Virus record (IMG/VR): IMGVR_UViG_3300033148_007488
Coordinates: 1 to 64,000 of that record
DNA length: 64,000 bases
Direction: 5' to 3' (one strand)
DNA from: a virus
Lineage: Duplodnaviria; Heunggongvirae; Uroviricota; Caudoviricetes
The notes beneath the pieces are model-generated. The model ran no database searches, was not told the DNA's origin, and was given only the letters and a program-made list of their open reading frames with translations. Both the position numbers and the translations under genes were made by a program. Shown one piece after another: positions 10,795 through 44,993 of this stretch; positions within the stretch are counted from its first letter, which is position 1, and each line of letters starts with the position of its first letter.

Positions 10795-11286
10795 CTATAT
10801 TCCATTGCATGCCTTAATCTCTTCACGTTTAGTCACCTCAGAGCACTTTTTTAGCCTAAATGTTGCGCTTGGGTGGTCACTTGTCATACTGGTGTCATTC
10901 AAAGAATATTTAATTTTAGACTCAACAGGGTATATTAATTCTGCATTTTTCTGACACTCTGCAACTACAGATTTAATGTATTTTCTAGCTTTAGGAGAAA
11001 TGTACTTTTCTTCCATTCCTATTCTGTATTTTTTGGAAAGTTCCATCACTAAAAACAGTGTGAGGAAATCTTTTTTACCAGTTTCTCCTTCAAATCTGGC
11101 AATAAATCCAGTAATCATTTTTTCAACTACTACATCAGATGTCAGGCATTCTGAAATTTCCAAAGAGATAACAACCCCTTCCTTATAGGTGTACTCAGTC
11201 CATTCTTCAACTTTAATGAATTTATTTGATGCTTGAGCTGTCCATATAGAGAACAATATTGCAATAGTTAAGATCAGTTTTTTCAT
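10795..11286 (-). CDS. Secreted protein with a Sec signal peptide.
   Basis: The start is probably at 11286: MKKLILTIAILFSIWTAQA|SNKF has an AQA-S signal-peptidase site. The track ORF extends upstream to 11331. Confidence 0.45.
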   Translation of the reverse strand: MKKLILTIAILFSIWTAQASNKFIKVEEWTEYTYKEGVVISLEISECLTSDVVVEKMITGFIARFEGETGKKDFLTLFLVMELSKKYRIGMEEKYISPKARKYIKSVVAECQKNAELIYPVESKIKYSLNDTSMTSDHPSATFRLKKCSEVTKREEIKACNGI

Positions 11287-11480
11287 TTTCCACCTTTTTT
11301 CTTTGCATAATCTACAATGACACCTATGCAATAATTACATAGATGAATTTTACACTCGCTCATTTTTTTAGAGTGGGTTGAATATGCTGTTTCATGATCG
11401 CTTTCATGTTTAAAGCCAATTCCTTCTTCCCTGCTTAAATCAGTACTGCAAATATCACAGAAATACATTTGTTTTTTCAT
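11283..11480 (-). CDS. Small Cys-rich zinc-ribbon-like protein.
   Basis: ORF of 65 aa with CDIC...C..C..CNYC motifs. Confidence 0.4.
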   Translation of the reverse strand: MKKQMYFCDICSTDLSREEGIGFKHESDHETAYSTHSKKMSECKIHLCNYCIGVIVDYAKKKGGK

Positions 11481-12145: not shown

Positions 12146-12910
12146 TTAAACTTTGTTTAGAGTTACCTTTTTAGTTATTATTTCACCTCCACAGCCATCT
12201 GCAAGAGCAATTGCCACAGATACAGCACTTTCTGTACTTTCACCAAGATATAAAGCAGATTCGGCATGTTTATAACCTGAACCAGTAGCACAGAAATCTT
12301 TTATTCTAAGTGGTAGCCAGTCTTCTATCATGAATAAACCGCTATTATGGGCGAGTATCATGCTACAACTTTGGTCCCATGAACCAGTCTTTTTTTTGCA
12401 ATAATCTAAAAATTCTGAACCCCATTCAATAATCCTGTCTTCATCACCTACCCCTATTTTATGATTTTTTGAGTAGACCATTAACAGCGGTAAGACCATT
12501 GCGCTTCCGCTAACACCTAGAATGAAATCATCCCCTGTAATTATTTTGTCAGGGTATCCAGTTGATTTTTTATGCCAACCCCTTGATATTTGTGAGTCAC
12601 AAGACATTGATATCTCATTTTTAATTATTTTTGCCGCTATTACTGTCATATATTCCTGACTCTGTATTGTTTGTATTTCATACCATTCTGGGTTTATTGT
12701 TTGATCTAAAAGGTGGCAAACTTTGCCTCCTAGTGAATATCCTTCCTTTATCGTTTTAACACAGCTATCATCTTTCAGCGCATCAGAAAAAGCTTTCTCT
12801 TTGTCAATTGCGACTCGTGGGATGCCTCCGCTTGATAAAAGTTCACCTTCAAACGTGTGAATCCTTGATTCAATTGTTGTTTTTTTGTGTGTTGTCTTCC
12901 CGTTTAACAA
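12146..12910 (-). CDS. Hypothetical protein, possibly an Ntn-hydrolase (HslV/proteasome-like) fold.
   Basis: 'FCATGSGYKHAESALYLG' and 'AIALADGCGGEIITKKV' faintly resemble the HslV motifs 'IAIGSGGPYAQAAARAL' and 'ALDIAGDICIYTN'. The resemblance is weak. Confidence 0.4.
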   Translation of the reverse strand: MLNGKTTHKKTTIESRIHTFEGELLSSGGIPRVAIDKEKAFSDALKDDSCVKTIKEGYSLGGKVCHLLDQTINPEWYEIQTIQSQEYMTVIAAKIIKNEISMSCDSQISRGWHKKSTGYPDKIITGDDFILGVSGSAMVLPLLMVYSKNHKIGVGDEDRIIEWGSEFLDYCKKKTGSWDQSCSMILAHNSGLFMIEDWLPLRIKDFCATGSGYKHAESALYLGESTESAVSVAIALADGCGGEIITKKVTLNKV

Positions 12911-13068: not shown

Positions 13069-14373
13069 TTATTTGGTTTTAAGACTTCTTGCAAGATCCA
13101 GCGCAGCTTTATTAGCCATCACTTCTAAATAACTAATGGCATTGACACCCCCTTTTCCGCCACTTCCACTAACAACCAATGGAACAAGTTGAGCAGATTT
13201 CATATTTGAGTACAGGTCTCTGTTCATTGTAACTTTAGCTTTAAGAGTCTCATCAAATACGTATTTAGGATCAAGAGCTGATGTTTTAGCCCGTCTACGA
13301 GCAGCAGCAAGTACATCCATACCTTGAGCTTCCAATTTCTGTTGCTTAAGAATCTGTGTCTGTTCCAGAGCCAACTGAGCTTTTACTGATACTCTCTGTT
13401 CAGCAGCAATAATAGCATTGGCTTTCACTCTTTCAGCATCGATCATCTCTTTAGTCTTTAAGACTTCAGAATCAGCTCTCTGTTTAGCGATACGTTGAGC
13501 ACCTTGAGCAACTTCAGTTTTAGCAGCCTGTTCAGCCTTCTTAAGGTTTTGTCGAGACAAGGCTTCATCAGCAGCAGCTTGTTTTTGAGCTTCCAACCGA
13601 GCATCAACTTTAGTCTCATAATCGATATCAATAATACTTGCATCTACTACAGCAATAGCGTAATCGGATAACATCTTGTCATTTCTGAGTAATTCTTGAG
13701 TCTTAGGATCTTTTTTGATCTCGATAGTTACTCTTTGTCTTTGACTTAATGAATCATCTTCACCTTTTTGGGCTGCCTGCTCAATCTTCTGTTCAGTAAC
13801 ATAAATACCGTTTTGTAACTGATCAGAAAAGTTTTGAGATAACTGGCCATTACCACCTGAGTAATGCTGTTCTACTGACATCATCCGAGCAGATGCTTTC
13901 ACATTCTCAGTAACCGTTCTAACAAGTAAGTTAGAAACCAATGTTTCCTGAGAACCAAATTCTTCATGAATCTTTAACAATCCACGTAATATCCCAGTGT
14001 CAGCAGCAGCAACATGCCCAGGTAGCCTGAATCGAGCTACACCACGAGCATCACCAGTTGTTGTATCCAAAAATCGAATAGGAATCAAAGGAATAATTGA
14101 ACTGGCTTTAACTTCAGCATCACCAGAAAAATTAACAGAGATTACTTTCTTGTAGATTGTGGTTGTACCAAAGGCTTTCATGTAAGGCCCTGCTGACTCA
14201 ATCACTGTTAAGTCGCCATTAAAGGCTGACTGATGTACAATTCGTTCATCAGCTTCATTCCATGAAATCATCTGAAAGACTAAAATCAAACCGATGACTG
14301 CAATAACAACCGATGAAATTATAATCGTAATCAGTCTCAGTTTTTTCTTTTCACTCTCATCATCAAAACTCAT
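13069..14373 (-). CDS. SPFH/Band-7 family membrane protein (flotillin/YqiK/FloT-like).
   Basis: It has an N-terminal transmembrane helix (ITIIISSVVIAVIGLILVF), an SPFH-like core, a long Ala/Glu/Gln-rich coiled coil (..LEAQKQAAADEALSRQNLKKAEQAAKTEVAQGAQRIAKQRAD..) and a C-terminal 'PLVVSGSGG' motif like FloT 'VVDTGGSG'. Confidence 0.65.
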   Translation of the reverse strand: MSFDDESEKKKLRLITIIISSVVIAVIGLILVFQMISWNEADERIVHQSAFNGDLTVIESAGPYMKAFGTTTIYKKVISVNFSGDAEVKASSIIPLIPIRFLDTTTGDARGVARFRLPGHVAAADTGILRGLLKIHEEFGSQETLVSNLLVRTVTENVKASARMMSVEQHYSGGNGQLSQNFSDQLQNGIYVTEQKIEQAAQKGEDDSLSQRQRVTIEIKKDPKTQELLRNDKMLSDYAIAVVDASIIDIDYETKVDARLEAQKQAAADEALSRQNLKKAEQAAKTEVAQGAQRIAKQRADSEVLKTKEMIDAERVKANAIIAAEQRVSVKAQLALEQTQILKQQKLEAQGMDVLAAARRRAKTSALDPKYVFDETLKAKVTMNRDLYSNMKSAQLVPLVVSGSGGKGGVNAISYLEVMANKAALDLARSLKTK

Positions 14374-14702
14374 TTTTCGTCTCCATTAAATAATTTAGTT
14401 TTAACGAAAGCTATTACTTCTTCTTCCGTTAGATGCGCACAAAAACTTCCAGACCTATGTAGTTCAACAAAAGTATTAAGGATATCTTTCTTCCTTTCTT
14501 CTATTGTATCTTCATTCTCAACAATCTTATCAATTTTCATCAATTCGCTGATAAGAAAATCTACTATTGTATCTGGATCTTTGAGAAAATTATACTCTTT
14601 AGTCCGTATAAAATCCTCCTTTCTGAAGTTGCCAATCAACGCATAAGCAGCTCCTCCTAAAATTGCTATTAATATCAATAGCAATAGTGTATAAATAAAC
14701 AT
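14370..14702 (-). CDS. Small single-pass membrane protein, translationally coupled to the SPFH gene (NfeD/YqiJ-like partner position).
   Basis: ORF of 110 aa with an N-terminal transmembrane helix (LLLLILIAILGGAAYALIG). Its stop overlaps the SPFH start (ATGA). Confidence 0.5.
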   Translation of the reverse strand: MFIYTLLLLILIAILGGAAYALIGNFRKEDFIRTKEYNFLKDPDTIVDFLISELMKIDKIVENEDTIEERKKDILNTFVELHRSGSFCAHLTEEEVIAFVKTKLFNGDEK

Positions 14703-14893: not shown

Positions 14894-15190
14894 TCAAATA
14901 AAAGCGGTGATCAGCATTCTCCTCCTTTTAATTAATGGGCCAGTAGGCGACAGTTCGGTATATTTATCTTTTGTGAAATAAAGCCGGGCTAATATTCCCG
15001 TATGTCTGGGTAAGATTAAATATATTTTGGATTTGTCTAAGGATTTCAGGTCCTCAACAATCGCAACCTCACCACTGAACGAATTAACAACCAATCGGTC
15101 ATACTGAGTATCTGCAAACGCTGGGGCGGTAACCAGCGTAAACAATCCCAGAAAAAGGACCGCAAAAATGCTGCAAATTTTTAAAAACAA
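14894..15190 (-). CDS. Small secreted protein.
   Basis: The signal peptide MFLKICSIFAVLFLGLFTLVTAPAFA|DT has an AFA-D cleavage site. Confidence 0.45.
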   Translation of the reverse strand: MFLKICSIFAVLFLGLFTLVTAPAFADTQYDRLVVNSFSGEVAIVEDLKSLDKSKIYLILPRHTGILARLYFTKDKYTELSPTGPLIKRRRMLITAFI

Positions 15191-15446: not shown

Positions 15447-16163
15447 TTATTCAATCTGAACATTATCAAAAAGAACCGTTCCTGCATACTTGATAACAGC
15501 TTGTTTTGCGAGTAGGAAGATTTCTTTATAATGAAGCTTATCTTCCATTCCTTGCTTAATGGTCTCATTGGCCACATGTTCAGCCATGACAATCATATGT
15601 AGTTTCATCCGGTCTAATGTGTCTCTGAAATTTGATGGTACTTTTTCCTTGTATTCAAGAAGTCTCAGGGCTACGTATTCCATTTTTGTTATGTTGCCAT
15701 AATATCTTGATGCTGATTTTGATCCTTGCTTTGTTGCATAATCAACGAATTCTTGAATACAACCTGTTAATTCAAGTCTAACAATTTTGCTGTCATCTCG
15801 AACCTGTTTCCACACTAAATCTTTATGATTTAGTAGAGTTCTTTCCATCAAGTTAAAAGCTTCAATGAAATCCATTTTCCATTTTAAAGCCTTATTTCCG
15901 GTAAAGCTCATTGCCAGCAATGAGAATGAATTTCGATCCATTTCGAAGTATCTAAAATCACGCCCCCTGATTGTTCTTTTTTTCTCAACAAAGGAATAAT
16001 GCGGCTTCCGAGTGCGTTTTTTTTCGTCCATGACTTTTTCTACACTCGTTTTCAGCTTGTCAATAGACTTTAATACCCTATCATGAGGTTTACCGAACTT
16101 TTCAGCAAGAACCCTACTATCTGCAACAGCATTACCCTTTTTAATAAATACTAAGTCGGTCAT
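15447..16163 (-). CDS. Phage regulatory protein Rha family.
   Basis: The N-terminus 'VFIKKGNAVADSRVLAEKFGKPHDRVLKSIDKL...LLAMSFTGNKALKWKMDFIEAFNLME' matches the Phage_pRha pattern (..v.tsS..vAe.FgK.H..VlR.I..l...LLamgf.g.kA..fk..yi.aF..mE). Confidence 0.6.
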   Translation of the reverse strand: MTDLVFIKKGNAVADSRVLAEKFGKPHDRVLKSIDKLKTSVEKVMDEKKRTRKPHYSFVEKKRTIRGRDFRYFEMDRNSFSLLAMSFTGNKALKWKMDFIEAFNLMERTLLNHKDLVWKQVRDDSKIVRLELTGCIQEFVDYATKQGSKSASRYYGNITKMEYVALRLLEYKEKVPSNFRDTLDRMKLHMIVMAEHVANETIKQGMEDKLHYKEIFLLAKQAVIKYAGTVLFDNVQIE

Positions 16164-16216: not shown

Positions 16217-17491
16217 GTGGGAAAATGTGTCAATAGATATTTACGGAATTATGCACCACCGTTTGCCCATAATACCATATTATGCAACGATTATCTAAAA
16301 ACTAACTTACCCGACAAGGTTTTTATGAATTATCAAGCACCAGCCCCCGCAATGTCTTTGTTCTCAGCAAAAAGACCGGAAGAAAAGATCCACGTAAAAA
16401 AGAAAGAAGTTTACACTCTTGAGGATAGTTACAGCTTCCAAGGTATGCCTATTTCCATTGAAAATAAAGCTGGGAACTATCGCACAGGCAAAGACGGAGA
16501 CGGCCACGAATGGAAAACATTCATGTATTATGATTATGGATATATCAGAAATACAGAGGCTAAAGATGGTGAAGCCGTGGACGTTTATGTCAACAAAGAA
16601 GGCAGGAAATCAAATCTGGTTCATGTAATCCACCAAAAGAAAATTGAAGAAGTAAAGAAGTGGAAAAATGGAATCTGTCCTACCTGCAAGAAAAAGCATT
16701 TCAAATGCAAACACGCTTATGATGAAGATAAGGTTATGCTTGGATTTGATTACCGTGATGATGCAATCAAAGCTTATACCGCTCAATATGATTCTCCTCT
16801 TTTCTTGGGGCCTGTCTCTACCTACACAATTGAGGAATTCAAAGGACATCTCAAGAATTCGTGGGGGAAGAAACTTCCTTATAATAGGTTAGAGAAGGGA
16901 TGTGCAGTCAAAAAAGGGAATACTAGGTTTATAACAACTTCTGAATTGGGTACAAAGGTTGACGAAATGTACAAAGCCGATAAAAAAGAAGGCGAAACAA
17001 GAGATGAGTTTGTTAATAGATCCTTGAAAGAAATTGTAGCCAAACAACAGATGTCTGGGCTGGACAAATCCTATCTAGGACAACCAGGAGATCCAAGAGG
17101 ATCATTCGCATGGTTAAGAGAAAATCTGGATACCGTACCAGCCTCTTCAAAAATAAAAATAAAGAACAAAGTAACACTCGCTACTTACGAAGCACCAAGT
17201 TATTTAAAAACAACCATCGATGAAATATTAACCAGTAAAATGGAGAAAAGTATGGAACCTTATTCAGTCAAAAAACATTCTTGTACATCTGATGAAGATT
17301 ATATGTTGAATCGTGAACAAGGAGAAACCAAACAACAGTACGATTGGCGGATGAGGCTTGAATCCAGAACTTCAAAAGGAAGTCGGATTTGGAATGAAGG
17401 TGTTCATGTAGAAGCTGTAAATGATTATCCTCACGGAATGTACAAATCTACTAAAAAAATTATTGTTCCAACAGAAAAACAGGTGATATGA
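16217..17491 (+). CDS. Hypothetical protein whose N-terminal region resembles the inorganic-pyrophosphatase fold.
   Basis: 'ISIENKAGNYRTGKDGDGHEW..FMYYDYGYIRNTEAKDGEAVDVYV' aligns to E. coli PPase '[21 protein letters not shown]...[25 protein letters not shown]'. The downstream Asp residues are not conserved. The real start may be the internal ATG at 16325 (MNYQAP...). The stop overlaps the start of effector paralog A. Confidence 0.45.
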   Translation: MGKCVNRYLRNYAPPFAHNTILCNDYLKTNLPDKVFMNYQAPAPAMSLFSAKRPEEKIHVKKKEVYTLEDSYSFQGMPISIENKAGNYRTGKDGDGHEWKTFMYYDYGYIRNTEAKDGEAVDVYVNKEGRKSNLVHVIHQKKIEEVKKWKNGICPTCKKKHFKCKHAYDEDKVMLGFDYRDDAIKAYTAQYDSPLFLGPVSTYTIEEFKGHLKNSWGKKLPYNRLEKGCAVKKGNTRFITTSELGTKVDEMYKADKKEGETRDEFVNRSLKEIVAKQQMSGLDKSYLGQPGDPRGSFAWLRENLDTVPASSKIKIKNKVTLATYEAPSYLKTTIDEILTSKMEKSMEPYSVKKHSCTSDEDYMLNREQGETKQQYDWRMRLESRTSKGSRIWNEGVHVEAVNDYPHGMYKSTKKIIVPTEKQVI

Positions 17492-18432
17492 TGCAAGTTC
17501 CTAAATTACTTCTTTTCAGTCCTTTCCAAAAAGGTTTCGTCAGGGCTCATACCCGTAAAGGTAAAACCGTTGGCCCCTATTTCACGAAACGCCAGAAAAA
17601 AATAGGCACTGTCAAGCACACCAAAAAAACAAGAGTGGACTATTCCGAAAAGGATGCTCAACTCAAAATCAAACTCTTGGAAGAAAAAAAGAAACACCAT
17701 AATCTCCACGTCGAAGCGGCTAAAGAACTAAAAGAAAAAGTCGATTCTCACAAAGCAAAAGGCCATTCAACCTTCAAAATAGGCAACAAAGAACACGACA
17801 TCTCAAAGGTCGCCAAAGATCTGAATAACCATATTGAACACCACTCTAACGAGGTCAAATCACACGATAATCATATCTCAAAGATCAAGGATCGATATAA
17901 AACGGATAGGGAGTATTTTGCTAAGAAAAAAGTGGTAAAAACAATCGTAAAAAAAGAAAAACCGAATATGCACGTTGATTTATCGAATCTTCCAAAATTG
18001 GAAGGTGTTTCAGAAAAACAAGTTAGTTATGCTAATGATATAAGGGATGTTGTTTTAAACAATGATATTATAAAAGTTCTTGATGCGACAAAAGAAAATT
18101 ATGATAAATCAATAAAAGAACAAAGAGAACGGCTAAGAAGCAGAGGAAAATCAGATAGCAAATCGCTTTTAAGAAAAATTGAATATCAAAAAACTATTGA
18201 TAGATATAAAAATTTACTTGGAAGATTTAAGAAAGAAACAAGCGCATCCTTTTTTTTAGATCATCACCATTCTATGTTAAAAGTTTATAGACGGTCTACT
18301 ATGTCAGAAAGAATGCAGCAAATGAGTGATGATTGGATCAAGAGCGAAAATATAAAAGATGCCAAATCATACATTGAGTATGACTTGGCAATGAGGGACA
18401 ATCCGATTATGCCAATGTTAAGCAAGCTTTAA
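17488..18432 (+). CDS. Paralog A of a putative packaged/ejected protein family. It has the conserved N-terminal module plus a unique C-terminal domain.
   Basis: The N-terminus MMQVPKLLLFSPFQKGFVRAHTRKGKTVGPYFTKRQ.. is shared with ORFs 20136, 26853 and 29452. About 450 nt at the 5' end are roughly 90% identical to 26853..27300. Confidence 0.6.
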   Translation: MMQVPKLLLFSPFQKGFVRAHTRKGKTVGPYFTKRQKKIGTVKHTKKTRVDYSEKDAQLKIKLLEEKKKHHNLHVEAAKELKEKVDSHKAKGHSTFKIGNKEHDISKVAKDLNNHIEHHSNEVKSHDNHISKIKDRYKTDREYFAKKKVVKTIVKKEKPNMHVDLSNLPKLEGVSEKQVSYANDIRDVVLNNDIIKVLDATKENYDKSIKEQRERLRSRGKSDSKSLLRKIEYQKTIDRYKNLLGRFKKETSASFFLDHHHSMLKVYRRSTMSERMQQMSDDWIKSENIKDAKSYIEYDLAMRDNPIMPMLSKL

Positions 18433-20135: not shown

Positions 20136-21893
20136 ATGATTATTCCTTTATTTACTCTTTTCACCCCTTTTGAAAAAGGTTTCGTCCACGCTACAAGCTA
20201 CACAAACAAGCAAGGAAAGCCTGTTCACCGTAAGGCATACACAGACAAGCGTATTGCCAAAAAAGTAGTAGCAAAGGACAAAATACGCACTCCATGGACC
20301 AAAGATAAAACCTACCAAGAAGTCAAAGAAAAGCTTCACACCGAAAGAGACTCACTAAAAAAGAAACTCGAAGATGTCCGGGCTCACAAAGAAGAACTCC
20401 TTGAAGCAAAAAAGAAAGGATACACCCACACAAAAAGAGGAATCAAGGTTGATCATGAACACCACCTGAAAACCCACGAAAAGAATATCCATGAAAAACT
20501 GGAAACCACCAATCACAAAATCATGCTCCACGCAAGTCACAAAGAGTTGCTTAGAGAAAAAATTGAGGAGACAAGGGAGAAAGCGAGAGAAAAAAGAAAA
20601 GCCACTTCAAAAGAATTCAAAAATCAATCTGAATACATGGATTGGTACAGGAAGCAATCCACAAAAATAAAGGATGAACATAAGCTTAATAAAACTGATG
20701 GGAAGTTGATTGCATCGTGGGGTAAACCTTCAGAAAAGAAACCTCTTCCTAAAAAAGCTGTAGTGGTTAAGGATAAAAAGAAAGTCTCTGTTCCCCCTAA
20801 AGTTGCAAAGCAAAAAGAAAAAGATATTAAATTTTATACTAGACGGTTAGAAAAAGTTAAAGATCATTGGGGCGGTGATAACAAAAGCGGTTCTATGGGT
20901 GCTCAGGAAAAAGGCCCGTTAATGATAAAATATGCTCAAGCACAGCTTGACGCTGTTAAAAATGGAAAAAGTCCTTTTGAAGTAAAATTAAAAGAGGAAA
21001 AGATAGTAGTCCCCAAGGAAAAAGAGATTGATTATTCAAAAATCAAAGTAGGCAGAGAAGACTACAAAGAAAGAAAAGAAGCTAAAATTGACCGATTAAG
21101 AGATAGAGCAGAAAAAGCGCAAAGTGAATCTGATTCCAGATATAAATCAGCAAAGCAAACGGCTGATATGATACCATTCGGGCAACCTATTTTAGTTGGA
21201 CATCATTCTGAAGGAAGGGCAAGAAGAGATCAGCAAAAAATTCATGATAATATGGGCCGTTCAATCAAAGCACAGGAAAAAGCTGGAAGATTAAGTGATA
21301 GAGCAGACTCCGCAGAAAATAATCGTTCTATCTCCTCAGATGACCCAGAGGCGGCAGTTAAGCTAAAACAAAAGCTTGATAATTTAGAAAAACTTCAAGC
21401 AAAAATGAAAGAAATAAATGCAGCTTACAGGAAGTTTAAAAAGAATCCTGCCACACTTGATAAATCTGGCTTAGAAGAAAATCACAAGAAAACAATCAGA
21501 GATTTTGTCCCTCAATATTCATGGGAAAAAGGACCATTCCCATCATATAGAATGACAAACAACAACGCTACTATCCGCAACACTAAAAAGCGTTTAGATG
21601 GCATGGTAGCCAGTTCGGGTGCAGAAACAAAAACTCTTTATGAAAAAGGAGATATTAAGGTAGTCGATAATGTTGAAGATAATAGAATTCAAGTGCATTT
21701 CCCTGATAAGCCAGATGAAGCAACAAGAAAAGCTCTTAAATCGAATGGTTTTAAGTGGGCTCCTAGTGTTGGAGTATGGCAACGCAAGCGGTCTCCTAAC
21801 GCCAGATTCTCGACTAAGTATTTAATTAAAGAGTTGGAGTCTATGTCCAAGTCCGTAGCAATTCCTTTAATGCTATTATTCAAAGCTGTCTAA
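20136..21893 (+). CDS. Paralog B of the packaged/ejected family. It has a divergent N-terminal module (MIIPLFTLFTPFEKGFVHA..., K/H-rich helices) and a C-terminal DUF3560-like region.
   Basis: The LF.PF.KGFV motif is shared. The C-terminal 'IPFGQPILVGHHSEGRARRDQQKIHDN' resembles the DUF3560 family I recall from plasmids and phages (..iPfGQPilvGHHSe.r.rr...). Confidence 0.55.
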   Translation: MIIPLFTLFTPFEKGFVHATSYTNKQGKPVHRKAYTDKRIAKKVVAKDKIRTPWTKDKTYQEVKEKLHTERDSLKKKLEDVRAHKEELLEAKKKGYTHTKRGIKVDHEHHLKTHEKNIHEKLETTNHKIMLHASHKELLREKIEETREKAREKRKATSKEFKNQSEYMDWYRKQSTKIKDEHKLNKTDGKLIASWGKPSEKKPLPKKAVVVKDKKKVSVPPKVAKQKEKDIKFYTRRLEKVKDHWGGDNKSGSMGAQEKGPLMIKYAQAQLDAVKNGKSPFEVKLKEEKIVVPKEKEIDYSKIKVGREDYKERKEAKIDRLRDRAEKAQSESDSRYKSAKQTADMIPFGQPILVGHHSEGRARRDQQKIHDNMGRSIKAQEKAGRLSDRADSAENNRSISSDDPEAAVKLKQKLDNLEKLQAKMKEINAAYRKFKKNPATLDKSGLEENHKKTIRDFVPQYSWEKGPFPSYRMTNNNATIRNTKKRLDGMVASSGAETKTLYEKGDIKVVDNVEDNRIQVHFPDKPDEATRKALKSNGFKWAPSVGVWQRKRSPNARFSTKYLIKELESMSKSVAIPLMLLFKAV

Positions 21894-26593: not shown

Positions 26594-26856
26594 GTTTTAT
26601 ATGGGATATATGGAGTCTTTACCATTTTTGGGCATTGCTCCCTGTAGCAATAATGTTTTTCTTTGGTGCGTTTCTTTGGGTAAAAGTTGTTACTCCAAGT
26701 GATTATCATGAACGGAAGGCATGGAAACAACAGCGAGAAAATAAGAAATCAGGTCAAACAAAGTTCAGGCGTGTTGTTATGACCTCAATGATCTTAGTGT
26801 TCGGGTTGATGGCTTCAACAACATTCTGTTTTTCCTTCTATATGGCACTCAAATGA
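26590..26856 (+). CDS. Small two-TM membrane protein.
   Basis: ORF of 88 aa with two hydrophobic helices. It is coupled to its neighbours by ATGA overlaps. Confidence 0.5.
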   Translation: MSFIWDIWSLYHFWALLPVAIMFFFGAFLWVKVVTPSDYHERKAWKQQRENKKSGQTKFRRVVMTSMILVFGLMASTTFCFSFYMALK

Positions 26857-28148
26857 TACCCAGTATCCTTCTTTTCAGCCCCTTCCAGAAGGGATTTGTC
26901 AGGGCTCACACTCGCAAAGGGAAAACCGTTGGCCCCTATTTCACAAAACGTCAAAAGAAAATAGGCACCGTCAAGCACACCAAAAAAACCAGAGTCGATT
27001 ATTCAGAAAAGGATGCTCAACTCAAAATCAAACTCTTGGAAGAGAAAAAGAAACACCATAATCTCCATGTCGAAGCGGCTAAGGAACTCAAAGAGAAAGT
27101 CGATTCTCACAAAGCAAAAGGACATTCAACTTTTAAAATAGGCAATAAAGAACACGACATTTCCAAAGTGACCAAAGACCTGAATAATCACATTGAGCAC
27201 CATTCAAATGAAGTGAAATCACACGATAATCATATCTCAAAAATCAAGGATCGATATAAGACAGATAGGGAGTATTTTGGGAAGAAAAAGACACTTGTTA
27301 AAAAAGAATCCCCTATCTACAAAATAGAAAAAATAGGAGATTCAGACAGGTATAACTTTTATTATCCTGAAAAAGACGGGACACAAGGGTCCATGAAAGG
27401 AAGGCCGTTAGGACAAATTAGTATGTTTTTTAAAACTGGAAGGGCCACTGAAGCAATACCAGATAAGTTTGAAGGAAGAGAACATATGGGTGATTTAGTG
27501 CTAAAAAGTAAACCACGAAATGACCAGAATCCTACTCTTAGATTAGAAAAGAAAGGGCGAAAGTACAATATTTATTACCCTACACATGCAGGAAAACACG
27601 GTATAGTAGAGGGGCAAACTTTAGACCAAGCAAAAGATTTCTTCAAAAGATGGGCTAAAGGACCAGACGAATTTGAGGGGAAACATCTTCTTTTAAAGGA
27701 ACCCCAAAAAAGAGCTAAACCAAAACCAAAGAAAGTAGAACAACAGATAGATAGGGTTGATTATGAATCATTTTCAAAAGATGGGTGGGTACATAGAAAA
27801 ACAGCTTTAAAATTCACTCTCACAGAATCAGTAACGAAAACTCATTTCAAAGAATTGATGAGGCTTTCTCATAACTATAATTCAAGAGAAAAAACAGGGT
27901 ACATCAATGAAGACGACAAGGAAAAATTTCTTGCGCTTACCAATAAAATGAAAAGCTCAAGCCTCAAAAGAGCTAAAACATCACACAAAAGATCTTTAGA
28001 AAAGTTTCAAGAGATGAAACAGCAAAGTCGTTCAGGAGAGAAATACACTTTTGAAGACTACGTGGAGGATTTTATGGATCAGCACGTAGCCTTGATGTCA
28101 GATAAAGACAGGAGTGAAGCTTATAAAAACTATATAAGAGACACTTAA
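26853..28148 (+). CDS. Paralog C of the packaged/ejected family. It has the N-terminal module plus a C-terminal domain with an internal ~40-aa repeat.
   Basis: The first ~150 aa are nearly identical to paralog A. The C-terminal part repeats 'YN.YYP...G..G...G..L.QA..FFK....A..PD.FEG' twice. Confidence 0.6.
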   Translation: MIPSILLFSPFQKGFVRAHTRKGKTVGPYFTKRQKKIGTVKHTKKTRVDYSEKDAQLKIKLLEEKKKHHNLHVEAAKELKEKVDSHKAKGHSTFKIGNKEHDISKVTKDLNNHIEHHSNEVKSHDNHISKIKDRYKTDREYFGKKKTLVKKESPIYKIEKIGDSDRYNFYYPEKDGTQGSMKGRPLGQISMFFKTGRATEAIPDKFEGREHMGDLVLKSKPRNDQNPTLRLEKKGRKYNIYYPTHAGKHGIVEGQTLDQAKDFFKRWAKGPDEFEGKHLLLKEPQKRAKPKPKKVEQQIDRVDYESFSKDGWVHRKTALKFTLTESVTKTHFKELMRLSHNYNSREKTGYINEDDKEKFLALTNKMKSSSLKRAKTSHKRSLEKFQEMKQQSRSGEKYTFEDYVEDFMDQHVALMSDKDRSEAYKNYIRDT

Positions 28149-29451: not shown

Positions 29452-31359
29452 ATGATACCCAGCCTACTTCTCTTCAGTCCATTCCAGAAAGGATATGTTC
29501 AGGCCCACACACGTAAAGGAAAAAGAGTAGGTCCTTACTTCACCAAAAGACAGCCCGGACAAGTCCAAGAAAAGCATACCAGAGACCGCTTTATTGACCA
29601 CGACAAAGCCAGTGCATCCAAAGCCCATGAAGAACTTGAATCACTTAAAGCCAAGCACCAAGAATTACTCAATGCAGCCAAGAAGCATCATGATGAAATA
29701 AAAAGCAAAGGACCAGTTGAAGGCGAAAGGGTAGACCACAAAACAAAACTTTCTCATCTCAAAGCAGAAATCAAGAATCAAAAGACTCACATAGACAACC
29801 ATTCCAGAAAACAAAAACTGATCAAGGACCGCTACAAAATAAGCAGCAAGCAGATTACCCAAAGAAAATCAAAGTCTGATCTGGAAAGAAAAATAGCTTC
29901 CCACTCAGACGGACAGAAAAAAACTATTCGTGCAATTCACGAAGCCCATAAAAAAGGTGAATCAAAACTTGAGCCTGGCAGAATTCTTAAAGGCAAAGAT
30001 AAAGACCATATTTATCTTGAAACAAAGCACAAGGACACAGGAGAAGCGCACCATATCGCCATTCATAAAGATGGTTCAGTTAAGGACCCCAATATTCTCC
30101 ATGGTGGAAAATTCGATTCAAAAACACTCAAAGAAGATGCCAAGCCAAAGAAGATTGTAGTTAAGTCTGAACCTAAAAAAGGAGTGACGGTTAAGAAACA
30201 AGAGCCATTTAAAAAAGTTGAGAAATCTGAGGCTAAGAAGATCGGTGTTAAGAAACAAGAGGAGAAAAAACAGACAAGATCGCAGGCCATGAAAGGCAAT
30301 AAGAATGCGTGGAAGGGAGGACCGAAGGATGAACCGAAAAAAGTCAAAGTTAAAACAAAAGAGGGATTGACAGCAAAAACTGGAACTTTAACATCAGGTG
30401 AAAAATCATCTTTGAGTTGGTATTCAGGAGATGGATTCCATAAATTAAATGAATATTTAAGAAAAGATAATGCATCTAAAAATAAGAGTCTTGATAAATT
30501 TACAGATAGTTTAAATAGTGCAATTAGTAAAAGTGAGATCACTAAAGATACAACGCTATATAGAGGCATAAACAATGATGAGTTAACAAAAAAATTCCAA
30601 TCAGTTAAAACTGGAAATAAGATTCCTGTTAGTTCGTTTCAAAGTACATCTTCTAGCGAACGAGCTTTATTTGCTCATGCAGGACTTGTAGGTGTTGCAT
30701 TGAAAATTAATGTTAAAAAAGGAACAAACATAGCTGATCTTGCAGGCAGCGGCACAGCTATGGACGCTAAAGAACAAGAAATCCTGTTGCCAAATAAAGG
30801 GCATTATGTGGTTAAAAGTGTAAGCAAACCAGAAAAAGGTGAATTAGGAAGAACTATAGTTGAAGTAGATTATATTCAAGATGAACAGGAAAAGAATGAA
30901 GATAAAAAAACTTCTAAAAAAGTTGAGAAATCTGAGGCTAAAAAGATTGTTGTTAAAAAATTAGATCAGGAGAAAAAAGAAACCAGGCTACCTGAAATAA
31001 AAAAAGGCCATTATATAAAGCGCAAGATATCGGGGCTCGGAGACAGACCTTCACCTTGGGAATATGTTTCATCTACTGTTAAAAACGGATTCATGGTTGA
31101 GGGTAGACCTTTTACGGTTCCGTTTTCAGATATTATAAGCGTTAGAACAGGAAACCCAGCACTTGGCCGTGGTGACGTGATTTATGATGATGGAAGCATC
31201 CAATCTAGGGTATTAAAGAAATCCATACCCACAACATCCAAACAATTAGAAAACTTATTGCAAGAAGAAAGACTGTTCAAATCCCTCAAATCTCCAGAGG
31301 AAATAAAACTCCTCAAGGAGAAGAGGAAACGAAGAAAGAAACGTAAAAATAAAAGGTAG
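29452..31359 (+). CDS. Paralog D of the packaged/ejected family. It carries the N-terminal module and a C-terminal mono-ADP-ribosyltransferase domain (R-S-E class, C3/Vip2/Alt-like).
   Basis: The N-terminus is MIPSLLLFSPFQKGYVQAHTRKGKRVGPYFTKRQ. The ART motifs, in order, are 'SLSWYSGDGFHKLNEYLRK', 'TLYRG' (Arg codon 30562-30564), 'FQSTSSSER' (STS at 30643-30651) and 'AKEQEILLP' (EQE at 30772-30780). The ART domain is flanked by 45-bp direct repeats encoding KKVEKSEAKKI.VKK. Confidence 0.7.
   Translation: MIPSLLLFSPFQKGYVQAHTRKGKRVGPYFTKRQPGQVQEKHTRDRFIDHDKASASKAHEELESLKAKHQELLNAAKKHHDEIKSKGPVEGERVDHKTKLSHLKAEIKNQKTHIDNHSRKQKLIKDRYKISSKQITQRKSKSDLERKIASHSDGQKKTIRAIHEAHKKGESKLEPGRILKGKDKDHIYLETKHKDTGEAHHIAIHKDGSVKDPNILHGGKFDSKTLKEDAKPKKIVVKSEPKKGVTVKKQEPFKKVEKSEAKKIGVKKQEEKKQTRSQAMKGNKNAWKGGPKDEPKKVKVKTKEGLTAKTGTLTSGEKSSLSWYSGDGFHKLNEYLRKDNASKNKSLDKFTDSLNSAISKSEITKDTTLYRGINNDELTKKFQSVKTGNKIPVSSFQSTSSSERALFAHAGLVGVALKINVKKGTNIADLAGSGTAMDAKEQEILLPNKGHYVVKSVSKPEKGELGRTIVEVDYIQDEQEKNEDKKTSKKVEKSEAKKIVVKKLDQEKKETRLPEIKKGHYIKRKISGLGDRPSPWEYVSSTVKNGFMVEGRPFTVPFSDIISVRTGNPALGRGDVIYDDGSIQSRVLKKSIPTTSKQLENLLQEERLFKSLKSPEEIKLLKEKRKRRKKRKNKR
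30205..30280 (+). repeat. Left copy of a ~45-bp direct repeat (AAAAAAGTTGAGAAATCTGAGGCTAAGAAGATCGGTGTTAAGAAA) flanking the ART domain. The right copy lies at 30919..30963.
   Basis: The protein repeat is KKVEKSEAKKIGVKK / KKVEKSEAKKIVVKK. Confidence 0.5.
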
Positions 31360-34860: not shown

Positions 34861-36159
34861 CTATAATTTTTTATATTTTTCCATTATCGCCCGTTGTCGA
34901 ATTGCCTGTTCTTTTGTTGGTGCAAGTCCCATATATTTACAGGTGTGATCATTCTTTAGAATTGTTAAAGCAAAGCGTTTCCATGATGCTACGTCACCAT
35001 TATTACAGCTTAACATGTCCAAGTGGTCTGGAAACTTTCTTATTCTAATTCTAGTTAAATTTTTCCTGCCATGATGAGTAAGCCCATTCTCAAAAAACTC
35101 TATTTTATGTTCTTTTAATTCATTGATTATTTTTTCTGGTAGGCCACGCCCTGTCCTGCCCCAAACTTTGAACGATTGGACAAAGCGCATCTTAAAATTT
35201 TCAGCGACTTCCTTTGGCAGAGTGTCTAAAAGAAATTTAGTGAATGACTTCCAAGTATGACCATCAGGAAGTTTAAATGTTCTATAACTCAATTGTTTTC
35301 CATAAGTTGCAATAAAATTTGCACCTTGCACCCTGGCACATAATTTAGCCCATACATGAGGATCAATCACCCTATACAATCCAAGACTTGACTTTGACTC
35401 ACTCATAAATGGTGAAGCAACTCTCATGCTACCCACTGGAATGCCAGCTTTATAGAAAATGTCGTAAAGTTCGTTGTATTCCCATTCAAACTTTGCATTT
35501 GCCACCCAAATATCGTCAGTTTTCCAATCATATATAGGGTAGCAATTATAGACTGTTTTTGTATTTTTCTTAGTCCACATTTGACCTTTGAGAATTGTTT
35601 TTCTTGTATTCATGATAGCCCTGAACCTGTTTAGGCTTTCAGAAGTTCTAATCCCTATAAGGCATGCTGTTTGTTCTCCTTGCCCGTACCAATCACCAAA
35701 TTTATCCCAAAATTCATCGTAGTTCATGTCTTCATAAAAGAAATCAAATTTATGATTGTTAATGTTTACAATATAGTCATCTTTAGGCATTGGCTTAATC
35801 CATCTTTCTTTATCTCTTTCTCCCCAACATTGCCATTCAACAGCATAAGCACTTACCGTACATGGCAGTGTAATAGGTAGGCAACACCAATAAACATCAA
35901 GTAAGTCTAAATTGGCTCTGACAATAGAGTGCATGAAAGCAAGGGAATATTCATAATTTGCTTCATTATCTAATATCATGACACCTATCTTTTTAGTGAT
36001 ATTGTTTTTTCGCATGTAATCTATGAAAAGGTTGAGCATCACTCCACTGTCTTTTCCACCTGAAAAAGAGATATAAATTTTAGGAAAATTATCAAATATA
36101 AATTTTATTCTTTCTTGGCTTGCATCATAAACATTAATTTCTGTATTATATCTTCGCAT
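34861..36159 (-). CDS. PAPS-reductase/PP-loop ATP pyrophosphatase superfamily protein with a C-terminal extension (IbrA/DndC-like architecture).
   Basis: The PP-loop is 'IYISFSGGKDSGVML'. It is 432 aa, in an operon with a ParB-like gene, as in the ibrAB pairs described in E. coli and in phages. Confidence 0.6.
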   Translation of the reverse strand: MRRYNTEINVYDASQERIKFIFDNFPKIYISFSGGKDSGVMLNLFIDYMRKNNITKKIGVMILDNEANYEYSLAFMHSIVRANLDLLDVYWCCLPITLPCTVSAYAVEWQCWGERDKERWIKPMPKDDYIVNINNHKFDFFYEDMNYDEFWDKFGDWYGQGEQTACLIGIRTSESLNRFRAIMNTRKTILKGQMWTKKNTKTVYNCYPIYDWKTDDIWVANAKFEWEYNELYDIFYKAGIPVGSMRVASPFMSESKSSLGLYRVIDPHVWAKLCARVQGANFIATYGKQLSYRTFKLPDGHTWKSFTKFLLDTLPKEVAENFKMRFVQSFKVWGRTGRGLPEKIINELKEHKIEFFENGLTHHGRKNLTRIRIRKFPDHLDMLSCNNGDVASWKRFALTILKNDHTCKYMGLAPTKEQAIRQRAIMEKYKKL

Positions 36160-36394: not shown

Positions 36395-36755
36395 GTATTT
36401 CTTTCCAGATAGTGTAATATTTTAATGCCATTGTATCCGCTTCATTCTGTTCTTTTATAGATAGGAGCTTAAAGCCTCCTCTTGCTTCTGATGGCAAACC
36501 TTTAGCATATGCGGCAGAAGCCTGTCCTAGCCATGCTATTTTGTTTAGGCTTTTATTACTCAAAAAATGTTCACACGAGTAAGTCCATTCATTGATAACA
36601 CATTCTAAAGCTGTTTCGAATTGCCATAGGCAAGATAGGAAAATCTTATATTCTTGTTGTGCATATTCTTTAGTCATTTTTAGATCAGCACAACTATCGT
36701 AAAATCCATCTTTATAACATTCCCATTTATGCCAAGGGTGCCAGATCTTTTTCAT
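36327..36755 (-). CDS. Hypothetical Cys/Trp-rich protein.
   Basis: ORF of 142 aa. The start is coupled to the upstream ParB-like stop. Confidence 0.45.
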   Translation of the reverse strand: MKKIWHPWHKWECYKDGFYDSCADLKMTKEYAQQEYKIFLSCLWQFETALECVINEWTYSCEHFLSNKSLNKIAWLGQASAAYAKGLPSEARGGFKLLSIKEQNEADTMALKYYTIWKEIHDNKSKKISKHLEKKRLQRGYS

Positions 36756-37555
36756 TCTGCTTGTTCTAAAAAGTCTTCTCTATTTTCGTAATCATCTTCT
36801 GTGTCAGCTTCCCAACTGTCAGAAAAATCTTTATTGTCAAACAATGCAGCTACACCAGTGATTTGCTTAAGCCTTAAAAGCTCATCTATGCTCATTCCAA
36901 TATGCTTGCAGATCCACCTATCCCCTTTGCCCATCTCAACTAATTCAGCAACGATTGTACTCATTAATTCAACATTATGAGTACCCCTAGCTCTATTGTG
37001 CCGAATAGTTGAAGCAATTCTATCACCTTTGCCCTCTCTCTCTTGATTAATATTAACAATTGGCAGATAACCAAGAATTCTTTTTTTTACTCCATCATTC
37101 TCTTTCCCAACTCTATTACGGTGAAATCCATCAACGACCTCTATATCTTTAGGTTTAGCCCATGCTACAATTGGTTGAGTATATCCGTCTTCAAGTATAG
37201 ACTGACTAAGTAACTCCATTTCAGGAGGGGCTACGGCATTGGGATTATAATCATTAGCATGAACATATTCTGATTTTTCCCATACTACACAATCTACAGG
37301 TTCATTTTTGAAAGGGCTGATTGAGTGCAATTCTTTTTTGACAGTATTTAAAGACTCAATTTTATCGTCCAATGGCATTGATTCTATAAGTTCACTAATA
37401 TTAGATATTAATTCTTTAAGATATCCGTTTTTTTCGGTTTTTTCCATTCTTTCTATTTTTAAAAAAGTATTTATTATTTTACTCATTATTAATCCTATTT
37501 TGCAGTTAACAAGGTTGCGGTATCCAATATCTTCTTTTCTTGATTGTCGAGCCAT
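36752..37555 (-). CDS. ParB-like nuclease domain protein (IbrB-like).
   Basis: 'YTQPIVAWAKPKDIEVVDGFHRNRV' fits the ParB/Srx pattern G.Piv......y.vvDG.HR..a. It is the first gene of the minus-strand operon that ends at 33801. Confidence 0.55.
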   Translation of the reverse strand: MARQSRKEDIGYRNLVNCKIGLIMSKIINTFLKIERMEKTEKNGYLKELISNISELIESMPLDDKIESLNTVKKELHSISPFKNEPVDCVVWEKSEYVHANDYNPNAVAPPEMELLSQSILEDGYTQPIVAWAKPKDIEVVDGFHRNRVGKENDGVKKRILGYLPIVNINQEREGKGDRIASTIRHNRARGTHNVELMSTIVAELVEMGKGDRWICKHIGMSIDELLRLKQITGVAALFDNKDFSDSWEADTEDDYENREDFLEQAE

Positions 37556-37845
37556 TTTGCGAAGGTCTCTGCGGTATCGAAAGGGTATTCAGAGTTCCAT
37601 TCAAATTGTTTAACAATTATTTTAAAACTCCCAAATTTGTAAGTGATGATAAATGTTTTTACATCATATTCTGAATTAACAATGTGTGAATTAAAAAGAG
37701 TATCATAACTCAGATAATGCAAAATTTCACAGATTGTATTTGTTTTCTCTCCTCTTACATCTTTTAGGCAATCTTCAATTGAATACCCATTAGCGCACTG
37801 GAAGGTGCTTTTATATGCGAATCTTATCTTTTCTTCGAGTGTCAT
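37495..37845 (-). CDS. Hypothetical protein.
   Basis: ORF of 116 aa. Confidence 0.45.
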   Translation of the reverse strand: MTLEEKIRFAYKSTFQCANGYSIEDCLKDVRGEKTNTICEILHYLSYDTLFNSHIVNSEYDVKTFIITYKFGSFKIIVKQFEWNSEYPFDTAETFAKWLDNQEKKILDTATLLTAK

Positions 37846-38588
37846 TTTGATTCAATTTCCTGATAGTTATTTTTTATTCTATCCCAGACTCTAGTCTGAC
37901 CTTTTCCGGTGATTAAGGTTCTCTTACTGATGCGGTCTTTTTCGTTTTTGTCTTGGAATGAATATTCATCCACTTCAAACCATTTATAGGTTAGATATTG
38001 TTGGTAAGGTAGATTGTTTTGCAGAAGTAGCCTTGCGTCTCTCATATCACGATAAAGCCTGTTTCTGCCTGTCTGATATCCTTTTTTACATAGAATCTTA
38101 GCAAACTCTTCTATTGTGACTGTACCTTCTGAATATCTGATTGATTCTGCGAATTTTATTTTAGGCTGGTCTTTTTCAATTTTTATATTTAGCCTTCTGT
38201 TCACTTCAAGTACGGCCAACTTTTTAAGCTCTGTGTCTCTGAGCATGTCTATAAGTTCTAACCTTGTTAATTCTTTTGGTGGCTCTTTGATCAGTTTCTT
38301 TTCGCATTCAATAAAATACTTTCTGGCCTGCCTGCCTTTATCGTTCCTCTCAACCATTGACAATTCCTTTGCCATGTCAAGAGTTAGATGGTAATCAATA
38401 GCGGTTCCCCCGTTTTGGGGAATCGATTTTAAGACCATATAATCAATATTTTCTTCAAAATCATATTGTTCGATTCTTCCTTTTACCCATGTTGAAAAAT
38501 CTTTACCAATTTCTAAAAAGGAATGCAGGTCTCTTGCGTTAACTGTTTTAATGCCTTCTGAACTTGTTTCAATTTTTATCAATTCCAT
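37842..38588 (-). CDS. Phage antirepressor (AntA-like N-terminal domain plus KilA-C/ORF6C C-terminal domain).
   Basis: The N-terminal part is 'NARDLHSFLEIGKDFSTWVKGRIEQYDFEENIDY' (AntA pattern ardLh..L.....fs.W.k.ri..y.f.e..Df). The C-terminal part is 'IEEFAKILCKKGYQTGRNRLYRDMRDARLL' (KilAC). Confidence 0.6.
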   Translation of the reverse strand: MELIKIETSSEGIKTVNARDLHSFLEIGKDFSTWVKGRIEQYDFEENIDYMVLKSIPQNGGTAIDYHLTLDMAKELSMVERNDKGRQARKYFIECEKKLIKEPPKELTRLELIDMLRDTELKKLAVLEVNRRLNIKIEKDQPKIKFAESIRYSEGTVTIEEFAKILCKKGYQTGRNRLYRDMRDARLLLQNNLPYQQYLTYKWFEVDEYSFQDKNEKDRISKRTLITGKGQTRVWDRIKNNYQEIESK

Positions 38589-40862: not shown

Positions 40863-41690
40863 CTATCCTGTAGTGTTGATTTTATAAGGAACAAGATCAG
40901 TGTTTTTCAACCTATTTGATATATACACTTGACCTTTTCCGGTAACAGTTATTTTAGTGCATAGTTTATTGATCACTTCGCCTGTCTCATCCTTTATGAC
41001 TTCTTTGCTAAATTCATCATATTTAAACCATCCTGAATTGACCGCACTTTGATATGGAATGTTTTTCCGATTACTAATGAATATCAGTTTTAGTTCTCTG
41101 AGTTTTTTAAATAGGTTATTTTGCCCGATCATATAACCATTCTTACTAAGGATTTTTGAAAATTCTCCAATAGAGATCGCATCATTTGATTCTTGAATTT
41201 TACCAGCGAATTCAACTAAAGGTTTGTCTGCCTCAATTTTCTCTTGAAGCTTTTCTTTTTCTTCAACCTCATAGAGCAAAGCTTTCAACGCTTCTCTGTA
41301 GTTTTGGGGCAGTTTTAATTCTTCTTGAGATACCTTTTTCCCAAACCAATAGCCGTGGAGAACATGAAAACATTCTTCTTGATACTCTTCAACCTTCTTT
41401 CTTGTTTTATTATTCTTTATGTTGTTCGGGTTGACAGTAAAAAGCCATCCATTCAATTTCCTGATAGGAATACACCCCATATTTCTTAATCTTCCATCAC
41501 CGGCAACTATGGCGATATCCCCATAGTCGAACTTTTTACTATTAGACTTTAGCCTTGAAGACTGAGAGGACCAATCCAAACCCATATTTTCAACAACTGA
41601 CTTCATGGCAACATAAATTCCTTTTTCGGTCCTCACCGTTTGAATTTGGTCACCATGAAAACCAATTAGTACTTGTTCTTTTAATGACAT
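40863..41690 (-). CDS. Second antirepressor-like protein (N-terminal Ant/Bro-type domain plus C-terminal KilA-C).
   Basis: The C-terminal 'ISIGEFSKILSKNGYMIGQNNLFKKLRELKLIF' parallels the KilAC region of 37842..38588. The N-terminal 'LIGFHGDQIQTVRTEKGIYVAMKSVVENMGLDW' is antirepressor-N-like. Confidence 0.5.
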   Translation of the reverse strand: MSLKEQVLIGFHGDQIQTVRTEKGIYVAMKSVVENMGLDWSSQSSRLKSNSKKFDYGDIAIVAGDGRLRNMGCIPIRKLNGWLFTVNPNNIKNNKTRKKVEEYQEECFHVLHGYWFGKKVSQEELKLPQNYREALKALLYEVEEKEKLQEKIEADKPLVEFAGKIQESNDAISIGEFSKILSKNGYMIGQNNLFKKLRELKLIFISNRKNIPYQSAVNSGWFKYDEFSKEVIKDETGEVINKLCTKITVTGKGQVYISNRLKNTDLVPYKINTTG

Positions 41691-44973: not shown

Positions 44974-44993
44974 TATTGAAAAAAGGAGATGCT

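Follow-up and report, generated by a model that had tools for sequence, protein, structure and literature searches.

A putative HflC-like SPFH cassette with an uncharacterised membrane partner in an uncultured marine phage lineage

The gene pair and the fold of its larger product

The genes described here lie in a 64,000-bp stretch of viral DNA assigned to the Caudoviricetes (IMG/VR record IMGVR_UViG_3300033148_007488, positions 1 to 64,000), which is referred to below as the window. Two overlapping genes are found on its complementary strand: one encodes a 434-amino acid (aa) SPFH-family protein (13069..14373, stop codon included), and the other, located immediately upstream, encodes a 110-aa protein (14370..14702), here called the partner, with an N-terminal transmembrane helix and a soluble domain that is predicted to be cytoplasmic and to consist of four helices. 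Both open reading frames (ORFs) are present exactly as they had been described in an earlier note made from the letters of this DNA, namely a 434-aa frame overlapped by that of a 110-aa protein with a single transmembrane helix. At the junction, which is read as TAATGGAGACGAAAAATGAGT, the genes share an ATGA overlap (14370..14373) that is made up of the partner stop codon TGA (14370-14372) and the SPFH start codon ATG (14371-14373). A GGAG ribosome-binding site for the SPFH gene (14381..14384) is situated 8-11 nucleotides (nt) upstream of this ATG, inside the end of the partner gene. Given the ATGA overlap and the GGAG upstream of the ATG, translational coupling of the partner and the SPFH gene is plausible, and the coupling to a small membrane partner proposed in the earlier note is upheld. 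Both ORFs are judged to be real genes rather than chance ORFs, because identical copies of the two are present on a 79,459-bp Joint Genome Institute (JGI) metagenome contig and because homologs are many: the SPFH protein has 68 further homologs with E-values down to 1e-179, and the partner family comprises 98 clusters.

The SPFH protein contains a single strongly hydrophobic segment at residues ~14-36, with a Kyte-Doolittle hydropathy of up to 3.09. Hydropathy and flanking charges indicate that this segment is an N-terminal transmembrane anchor (14266..14334), with KKKLRL before it and an acidic flank after it. Next comes an SPFH (Band 7) domain (residues ~36-251; 13621..14268) with a beta-rich SPFH1 part and an alpha/beta SPFH2 part that has an insertion at residues ~190-235, and then an A/E/Q/K-rich helical (coiled-coil) wall of ~140 residues formed by helices 253-364 and 369-393 (13195..13617). 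The C-terminal region (residues 394-434; 13072..13194, like the preceding features on the complementary strand) holds an LVP motif within the strand QLVPLVV, a Gly-rich linker (SGSGGKGG) and an amphipathic helix at residues 413-432. An AlphaFold2 model built on the family alignment, with a mean predicted local distance difference test (pLDDT) score of 75.8, consists of a transmembrane helix (residues 6-35), a beta-rich and then alpha/beta body (36-251), a continuous 112-residue helix (253-364) and a further helix (369-393). The modelled tail, which carries the LVP motif and the Gly-rich stretch, is of low confidence at 391-415 and helical at 413-432. LVP is invariant across the family alignment (columns L396/V397/P398), the AAADEAL..NLKKA block of the helical wall is highly conserved, and the window protein retains all of the family-invariant residues (97/97), a degree of retention consistent with purifying selection. 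By analogy with known SPFH cages, the hydrophobic LVP strand and Gly-rich linker (394-412) are a good candidate for the cap-barrel strand that closes the top of the cage. The low confidence of the monomer model at 391-415 would agree with a cap that takes shape only on oligomerisation.

The only direct match of the window SPFH protein was to PHROG 11908, a family of 'unknown function', which it matched end to end (E 9.5e-46). When its full-length relatives were searched (44-70% identical, >90% of length), PF01145 Band_7 was matched by 34 of the 36, with a best E of 8.6e-11, and the family profile compared with PDB sequences gave HflC as its top match (E 0.045). A Foldseek search of the model against the PDB also placed HflC first (7vhq_G, E 3.3e-11), with erlin, prohibitin, flotillin (9bq2, E 2.4e-8), HflK, stomatin, QmcA and vault among the other top matches. 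There were 48 PDB matches at E<=1e-3, and the best 50 listed were all SPFH or vault proteins. The isolated SPFH domains of stomatin and flotillin-2 (4fvj, 1win) align to the model with TM-scores of ~0.67-0.69. These searches support, indirectly, the identification of the 434-aa protein as a divergent member of the SPFH superfamily of membrane proteins. The SPFH fold proposed in the earlier note, which was to be given up if profile searches failed to back it, is thus borne out through the relatives and the modelled structure. The wider family of the same end-to-end architecture is large, with 1,062 clusters at 50% identity, of which 280 are at E<=1e-30.

Relationship to HflC, membrane topology and the partner protein

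Alignment of the family profile with Escherichia coli HflC using hhalign gave an E of 4.5e-5 and a probability of 69%, covering HflC residues 118-240. The corresponding values were E 0.033 for YqiK (probability 1.5%, transmembrane region only), 0.034 for QmcA and 0.23 for HflK, all with probabilities of <2%. By profile and modelled fold, the nearest characterised relative is E. coli HflC, and the hhalign E of 4.5e-5 marks HflC as that nearest relative rather than indicating membership of its family. The earlier note had instead assigned a FloT/YqiK flotillin architecture, which would make the protein a cytoplasm-facing scaffold that organises membrane microdomains with the help of an NfeD/YqiJ-type partner. 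The length and layout (transmembrane helix, SPFH domain, long helix, C-terminal tail) do resemble those of flotillins, flotillin cages are among the Foldseek matches at the E-value given above, and the gene upstream encodes a small membrane protein, just as yqiJ precedes yqiK. However, neither Pfam Flot nor any flotillin NCBIfam model was among the families matched by any of the 36 members, the alignment to YqiK was very poor, the charges flanking the transmembrane helix are the reverse of those in YqiK and QmcA, and the partner lacks PF01957 or YqiJ signal and any beta strand in its model, as detailed below. We consider a flotillin scaffold very unlikely, and the flotillin label is withdrawn.

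The orientation of the SPFH protein was predicted from the charges around its transmembrane helix. The N-flank holds 3-6 lysine or arginine (K/R) residues in most of the 36 members (1-6 overall) and is net-positive in 32 of them; the window protein itself has a net-neutral N-flank. All members except two have an acidic C-flank. Because of this K/R-containing N-flank and acidic C-flank, the positive-inside rule predicts an N-in topology with a periplasmic body, as in HflK/C and opposite to YqiK. The charge rule was controlled with E. coli SPFH proteins, the known orientations of which were taken from the literature (PMC10434171), and in these the charge of the N-flank separated HflK/HflC (positive) from QmcA/YqiK (none or acidic).

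The only hydrophobic helix of the partner begins at its first residue and covers residues 1-24 (14631-14702, complementary strand). The soluble domain after it contains a conserved core, 'LHRSGSFCAHL(T/S)EEE'. Its AlphaFold model is all-alpha, with five helices, zero strands and a pLDDT of 66, and comparison of this model with PDB folds gave no match (best E 1.8). Members of the partner family have no N-tail and carry 3-6 K/R (mostly 4-5) directly after the transmembrane helix, and because of this the soluble domain is predicted to lie in the cytoplasm, with the membrane between it and the SPFH body.

The gene order had been likened in the earlier note to NfeD/YqiJ-SPFH operons, but no NfeD (PF01957) or YqiJ (DUF1449) signal from Pfam or NCBIfam appeared among the families listed at E<=1 for 18 / 34 partner members, and the hhalign probability of the partner family against YqiJ was 0.2%. 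With no family signal and an all-alpha model rather than an oligonucleotide/oligosaccharide-binding (OB) fold, the identification of the partner as NfeD or YqiJ was rejected. Many cellular partner proteins (P0078-P0134 etc.) are named in databases as 'methanolan biosynthesis protein EpsI' or 'cbb3-type cytochrome oxidase subunit 3'. True EpsI corresponds to TIGR02914 and adjoins the exosortase EpsH (PMC1569441). TIGR02914 was not among the 25 listed of the 35 families matched by 34 partner members, and no EpsH gene was found in the bacterial loci examined, so the EpsI name is unsupported. A weak match to TIGR02736, the short name of which is 'cbb3_Q_epsi', was seen in 14 of the 34 members (E 3.6e-4), and this may be the source of the odd names. 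Weak matches to CcoQ, FtsL, TrbI and similar proteins fell below cutoffs and were attributed to the transmembrane helix. As far as sequence and model can tell, the partner is an uncharacterised all-alpha single-pass membrane protein, and not NfeD, YqiJ or EpsI.

Distribution of the cassette and its phage surroundings

In approximately 30 loci the partner gene lies upstream of the SPFH gene and mostly overlaps it. Homologs of both genes, in the same order, occur in marine Alteromonadales of the genera Shewanella, Pseudoalteromonas, Psychromonas, Moritella and Colwellia, and the window SPFH protein is about 64-70% identical to these cellular copies. The window partner is 64% identical to that of the phage-like contig L006, 51% to that of Shewanella woodyi and 48% to the upstream ORF in Pseudoalteromonas. 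A partner gene was present in essentially every Alteromonadales locus fetched, with an overlap typically of ~8 nt and up to 26 nt in Shewanella; at locus L010 the partner and SPFH genes do not overlap. A shorter form of ~74 aa, which keeps only the transmembrane helix and the first helix ('PD.LV(D/E)AII'), lies beside the SPFH gene in Desulfobacterales, SAR324 and Acanthopleuribacter. The upstream ORFs of five distant loci (L027, L030, L032, L035 and L036) are not partner homologs and were dropped. The cellular cassettes sit among housekeeping genes, not in prophages, the S. woodyi pair being located between rlmB and rpsF. In this species (L001/L002) the cassette also follows DUF2065-purA-rnr by a few genes, and in E. 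coli (L042) hflK-hflC are followed by yjeT (DUF2065) and purA; the DUF2065-purA link between the two may be coincidental.

At least three phage-like contigs (L006, L007 and L041) were found through exact-protein look-ups, and a scan of viral contigs with the window SPFH protein alone found no relatives. Contig L006 encodes both the partner and the SPFH protein, and the cassette is all that it has in common with the window. On L041 the partner and SPFH genes are divergent from a gene for a 1,074-aa InPase polyvalent protein, and on L007 an SPFH gene without a partner is divergent from one for a 969-aa InPase protein. At least eight further genes of the window are shared with L007 and/or L041 at 41-63% amino acid identity, and the local order of InPase, cassette and a 506/530-aa protein is common to the window and L007/L041. 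Because other genes and the local order are shared in this way, the cassette is regarded as an inherited, long-maintained feature of the phage lineage of the window, L007 and L041. In a neighbour-joining tree the phage-associated copies are more divergent and lie outside a tight clade of Alteromonadales chromosomal copies, which are ~85% identical between genera. A 3.9-kb contig from a metagenome-assembled genome (MAG) named 'Bacteroidetes bacterium' (L008; 69% best-segment identity, 73% by tblastn) and a MAG named 'Thermoplasmatota archaeon' (L027; 51% identity) also carry the cassette or the SPFH gene. The L008 copy groups with the phage-like copies on the tree, and both L008 and L027 may be mis-binned phage or gammaproteobacterial fragments.

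A further reading is that the cassette is not of phage origin, either because it comes from a host or from flanking sequence or because the assembly is wrong, or that a coiled-coil protein of the virion has been taken for an SPFH protein. In its favour, the best-matching named homologs are bacterial chromosomal proteins, and there is no direct Pfam match for the window protein. Against this, identity to any cellular copy is only 64-70%, both flanks consist of genes that are common to two phage-like contigs in the same order, GC content is even across the cassette region and the window, and the match to PHROG 11908 runs end to end. The protein also has a predicted transmembrane anchor and SPFH fold, and its gene lies far from the structural module. 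A non-phage origin or a misread virion protein is thus highly improbable. The placement inside phage DNA made in the earlier note agrees with the flanking genes shared with related phage contigs and with the capsid, sheath and tail genes of the window.

Phage genes of the window include those for a major head protein, a head protease, a tail sheath and tail proteins, as well as for a lytic transglycosylase, primase-like and ParB-like proteins, Rha and two Ant proteins. The closest cultured comparison is distant, with a capsid ~22% identical to those of Bacillus phages, and there is no close cultured relative. No tRNAs were found in the window. The cassette lies in a leftward block with the Rha regulator and small exported proteins, far from the structural module. 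The Rha regulator, two AntA/KilAC-type anti-repressors, the ParB-like protein and a PAPS-reductase/DUF3440 protein are encoded at 15447-16163, 37842-38588, 40863-41690, 36752-37555 and 34861-36159, all on the complementary strand. A near-consensus sigma-70 promoter (11/12) is situated upstream of Rha at 16233-16204. Site counts in a promoter and terminator scan were no higher than those in shuffled controls, and no claim is made for a separate 'moron' transcription unit.

Two small ORFs on the complementary strand, 14894-15190 and 10795-11331, have signal-peptide-like starts (…LVTAPAFA/DTQ and MKKLILTIAILFSIWTAQA/SNK, respectively). Together with the partner and the SPFH protein, these ORFs give the leftward block several envelope-targeted products. 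Neither of the two had a tblastn match in L006, L007, L008 or L041.

The setting of the cassette invites a reading in terms of superinfection exclusion or an injection block, in which a periplasmic cage would mask an inner-membrane component needed by incoming phage DNA and so shield a cell that is infected or carries the phage as a lysogen. Such a role agrees with the location in the membrane and the periplasmic orientation predicted for the protein, the gene stands in a block with Rha and small exported proteins rather than with structural or replication genes, and the several Rha/Ant regulators and ParB-like gene suggest a temperate or carrier lifestyle. On the other hand, no integrase or repressor was identified among the ORFs scanned in the window, no PADLOC defence model was matched, and in many bacteria the cassette is core-chromosomal and outside prophages, which argues for a housekeeping membrane function. 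Exclusion is accordingly rated as unlikely.

Control of lysis timing or stabilisation of the envelope, with the cage buffering membrane damage or restraining holins until late in infection, would draw on the link between SPFH/flotillin proteins and bacterial membrane stress tolerance (PMC10434171, PMC13086221) and on the envelope-targeted small ORFs nearby. The only lysis-type enzyme found is the transglycosylase (44976-45803), which is ~30 kb from the cassette, with no holin or spanin adjacent to the cassette, and the genes beside the cassette are not retained next to it in related contigs. Membership of a lysis cassette was rejected on position, and a role in lysis timing or envelope stabilisation is rated a little lower than exclusion.

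A 254-aa ORF on the complementary strand (12146-12910), located 158 bp downstream of the SPFH gene, matched PHROG 1040 'peptidase HslV family' over residues 78-249 (E 2.5e-22) and had no Pfam match. By analogy with protease-type NfeD proteins this HslV-like peptidase was considered as a functional partner of the SPFH protein, and it was rejected since neither the contigs L006, L007 and L041 nor the bacterial loci have a counterpart of it next to the cassette. On the forward strand, ORFs at 16217-17491, 17488-18432, 20136-21893, 26853-28148 and 29452-31359, among them that of the InPase (PF18823) protein, match successive segments of the polyvalent proteins of the related contigs L007 and L041. 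The matched proteins are ~1,000-1,300 aa in length (InPase, RadC, ART-PolyVal; L007 976-7808, L041 6339-9563), and the window seems to have their counterpart in pieces, as several ORFs that are split from one another or scattered. In L007 and L041 the polyvalent protein is transcribed divergently from the SPFH cassette.

Proposed role and comparison with known systems

SPFH scaffolds such as HflK/C, flotillins, prohibitins and stomatins build membrane cages, and the contents of most bacterial ones are unknown. Taken as a whole, the observations on this locus are best explained by a conserved cassette of an HflC-like SPFH protein and its partner that would form a periplasmic cage and carry out host-type membrane-protein management, a reading to which we assign a probability of roughly 0.55. 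The SPFH protein would form a homo-oligomer at the inner membrane, with the shape of a ring or cage, as do all solved SPFH proteins. From the positive-inside rule the cage would face the periplasm and the soluble domain of the partner the cytoplasm. Since the soluble domains are predicted to be on opposite sides of the membrane, the two proteins would meet through their transmembrane helices, and the partner may be a stoichiometric assembly or adaptor subunit that is made by coupled translation. More speculatively, the phage may use the cassette as an auxiliary gene set, which it took from the host or has in common with it, to wall off part of the inner membrane while it infects the cell. The walled-off patch might sequester, regulate or protect host membrane proteins through HflKC-type control of turnover, for which FtsH is the obvious candidate client, and in this way the envelope might stay functional or phage regulators might be tuned. 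Lysis control, superinfection exclusion and protection against FtsH had all been put forward in the earlier note; only the HflKC-like role gains some support here, and the exclusion and envelope/lysis roles have less support than it does.

Several observations count against an HflC-like cage. The SPFH assignment is transitive and model-based because the window protein lacks a match of its own to these families: its sequence gave no Pfam match at E<=1, Band_7 included, and no match in NCBIfam, PADLOC or PDB sequences. Direct searches of these collections with the proteins of the pair yielded nothing informative. The Pfam search suggested in the earlier note was thus negative for the protein itself and positive for PF01145 in its relatives. 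The HflC model PRK11029 was matched by 2 of the 36 members at E 0.003, far below cutoff, and the HflK NCBIfam model by none of them, so that the family does not belong to HflK/HflC proper. The functional form of HflK/C is a heteromer made of two paralogous SPFH proteins, whereas one SPFH gene per locus, beside the partner and without a paired paralog, was found in the window and in all loci examined. In the charge-rule control the C-flank was uninformative, failing on HflK/HflC themselves, and the topology is therefore only partly controlled, as the N-flank term alone separates the known proteins. The SPFH gene of L007 stands without a partner, which indicates that the partner is not strictly required. 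Finally, no link of the SPFH protein to FtsH or to another client was present in the evidence gathered.

A bolder form of the proposal, which we hold to be unlikely, is that the pair is an undescribed two-component SPFH machine in which a periplasmic cage would be coupled to a cytoplasmic adaptor. Such a machine might be kept by a lineage of marine phages to re-wire the inner membrane of the infected cell; the caged protein could, for instance, be FtsH or one involved in DNA entry or transport, with effects on phage regulator stability or a superinfection block. If this were true, the large family of viral SPFH proteins that resemble PHROG 11908 would for the first time have a function assigned to it. 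For the HflC-like cassette in general, the locus offers a compact, phage-inherited SPFH version with a dedicated and unannotated partner and close counterparts in cultivable Pseudoalteromonas and Shewanella. This makes it tractable for three questions, namely the job of the non-NfeD partner, the membrane side of the cage and the gain to the phage. Two database labels are also corrected, as the partner is predicted not to be EpsI and the SPFH protein not to be a flotillin.

Viral SPFH genes have already been described, as annotations. ORFs of this type were listed in the T4-like phages 44RR, Aeh1 and RB43 in 2006 (PMC1524935), and SPFH annotations are also found in crAss001 and in phages of Aeromonas, Vibrio and Alishewanella. 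Among viral structures, 23 matched the model at E<=1e-3, including those of giant viruses, and M4SNG3 of Pseudoalteromonas phage pYD6-A did so at a Foldseek E of 5e-23. The statement in the earlier note that SPFH scaffolds are unusual in phage genomes was, in view of these examples and of PHROG 11908, too strong. In the literature searched, phage SPFH proteins were mentioned at the annotation level only, and no functional test was found. What appears to be new is the recognition from sequence of a conserved non-NfeD partner, with a predicted split of the soluble domains across the membrane, and the observation that an uncultured lineage of marine phages stably carries the complete cassette.

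The earlier viral SPFH/Band 7 proteins (Aeromonas phages 1233 and MQM1; Vibrio phages CHOED, River4 and Thalassa; crAss001; T4-like phages; giant viruses) resemble the window protein in length (~410-430 aa) and in end-to-end architecture. They are only 21-33% identical to it by tblastn, whereas the Alteromonadales chromosomal genes are closer (64-70%). The ~110-aa partner is not found in Vibrio phage CHOED or Aeromonas phage 1233, where the upstream ORFs are soluble. In Vibrio phage River4 a 52-aa ORF, gp164 (L047 2257-2415, forward strand), lies directly upstream of the distant SPFH homolog gp165. In gp164 the transmembrane helix begins at residue 1, the flank is rich in K/R and the tail is short and helical, which is the layout of the short partner form.

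Among characterised systems, E. coli HflC forms together with HflK an SPFH cage that faces the periplasm, surrounds the FtsH protease and modulates it. The window protein is similar to HflC in having a single N-terminal transmembrane helix, a K/R-positive N-flank in its family, an SPFH domain, a helical wall and a putative C-terminal cap segment, and in lacking an associated NfeD gene. It is ~100 residues longer, with a longer helical wall, and unlike HflKC the cassette has one SPFH gene and a dedicated small transmembrane partner, which HflKC lacks. The SPFH-NfeD operons (QmcA-YbbJ, YqiK-YqiJ and FloA/FloT-NfeD) are likewise two-gene units of an SPFH scaffold and a small membrane protein, and in the solved QmcA-YbbJ structure both proteins form a stoichiometric cage complex (8z5g; PMC13086221). 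The present pair differs from these operons in that its partner is not homologous to NfeD/YqiJ and is predicted to be all-alpha rather than to have an OB-fold, and in that the SPFH body is predicted to have the opposite orientation, with the partner domain across the membrane from it. The chromosomal Alteromonadales pairs, annotated as 'SPFH domain-containing protein' and a 112-aa 'hypothetical' or 'EpsI' protein, are direct homologs with the same gene order and mostly overlapping starts, but unlike the window pair they form a tight clade and are located amid housekeeping genes.

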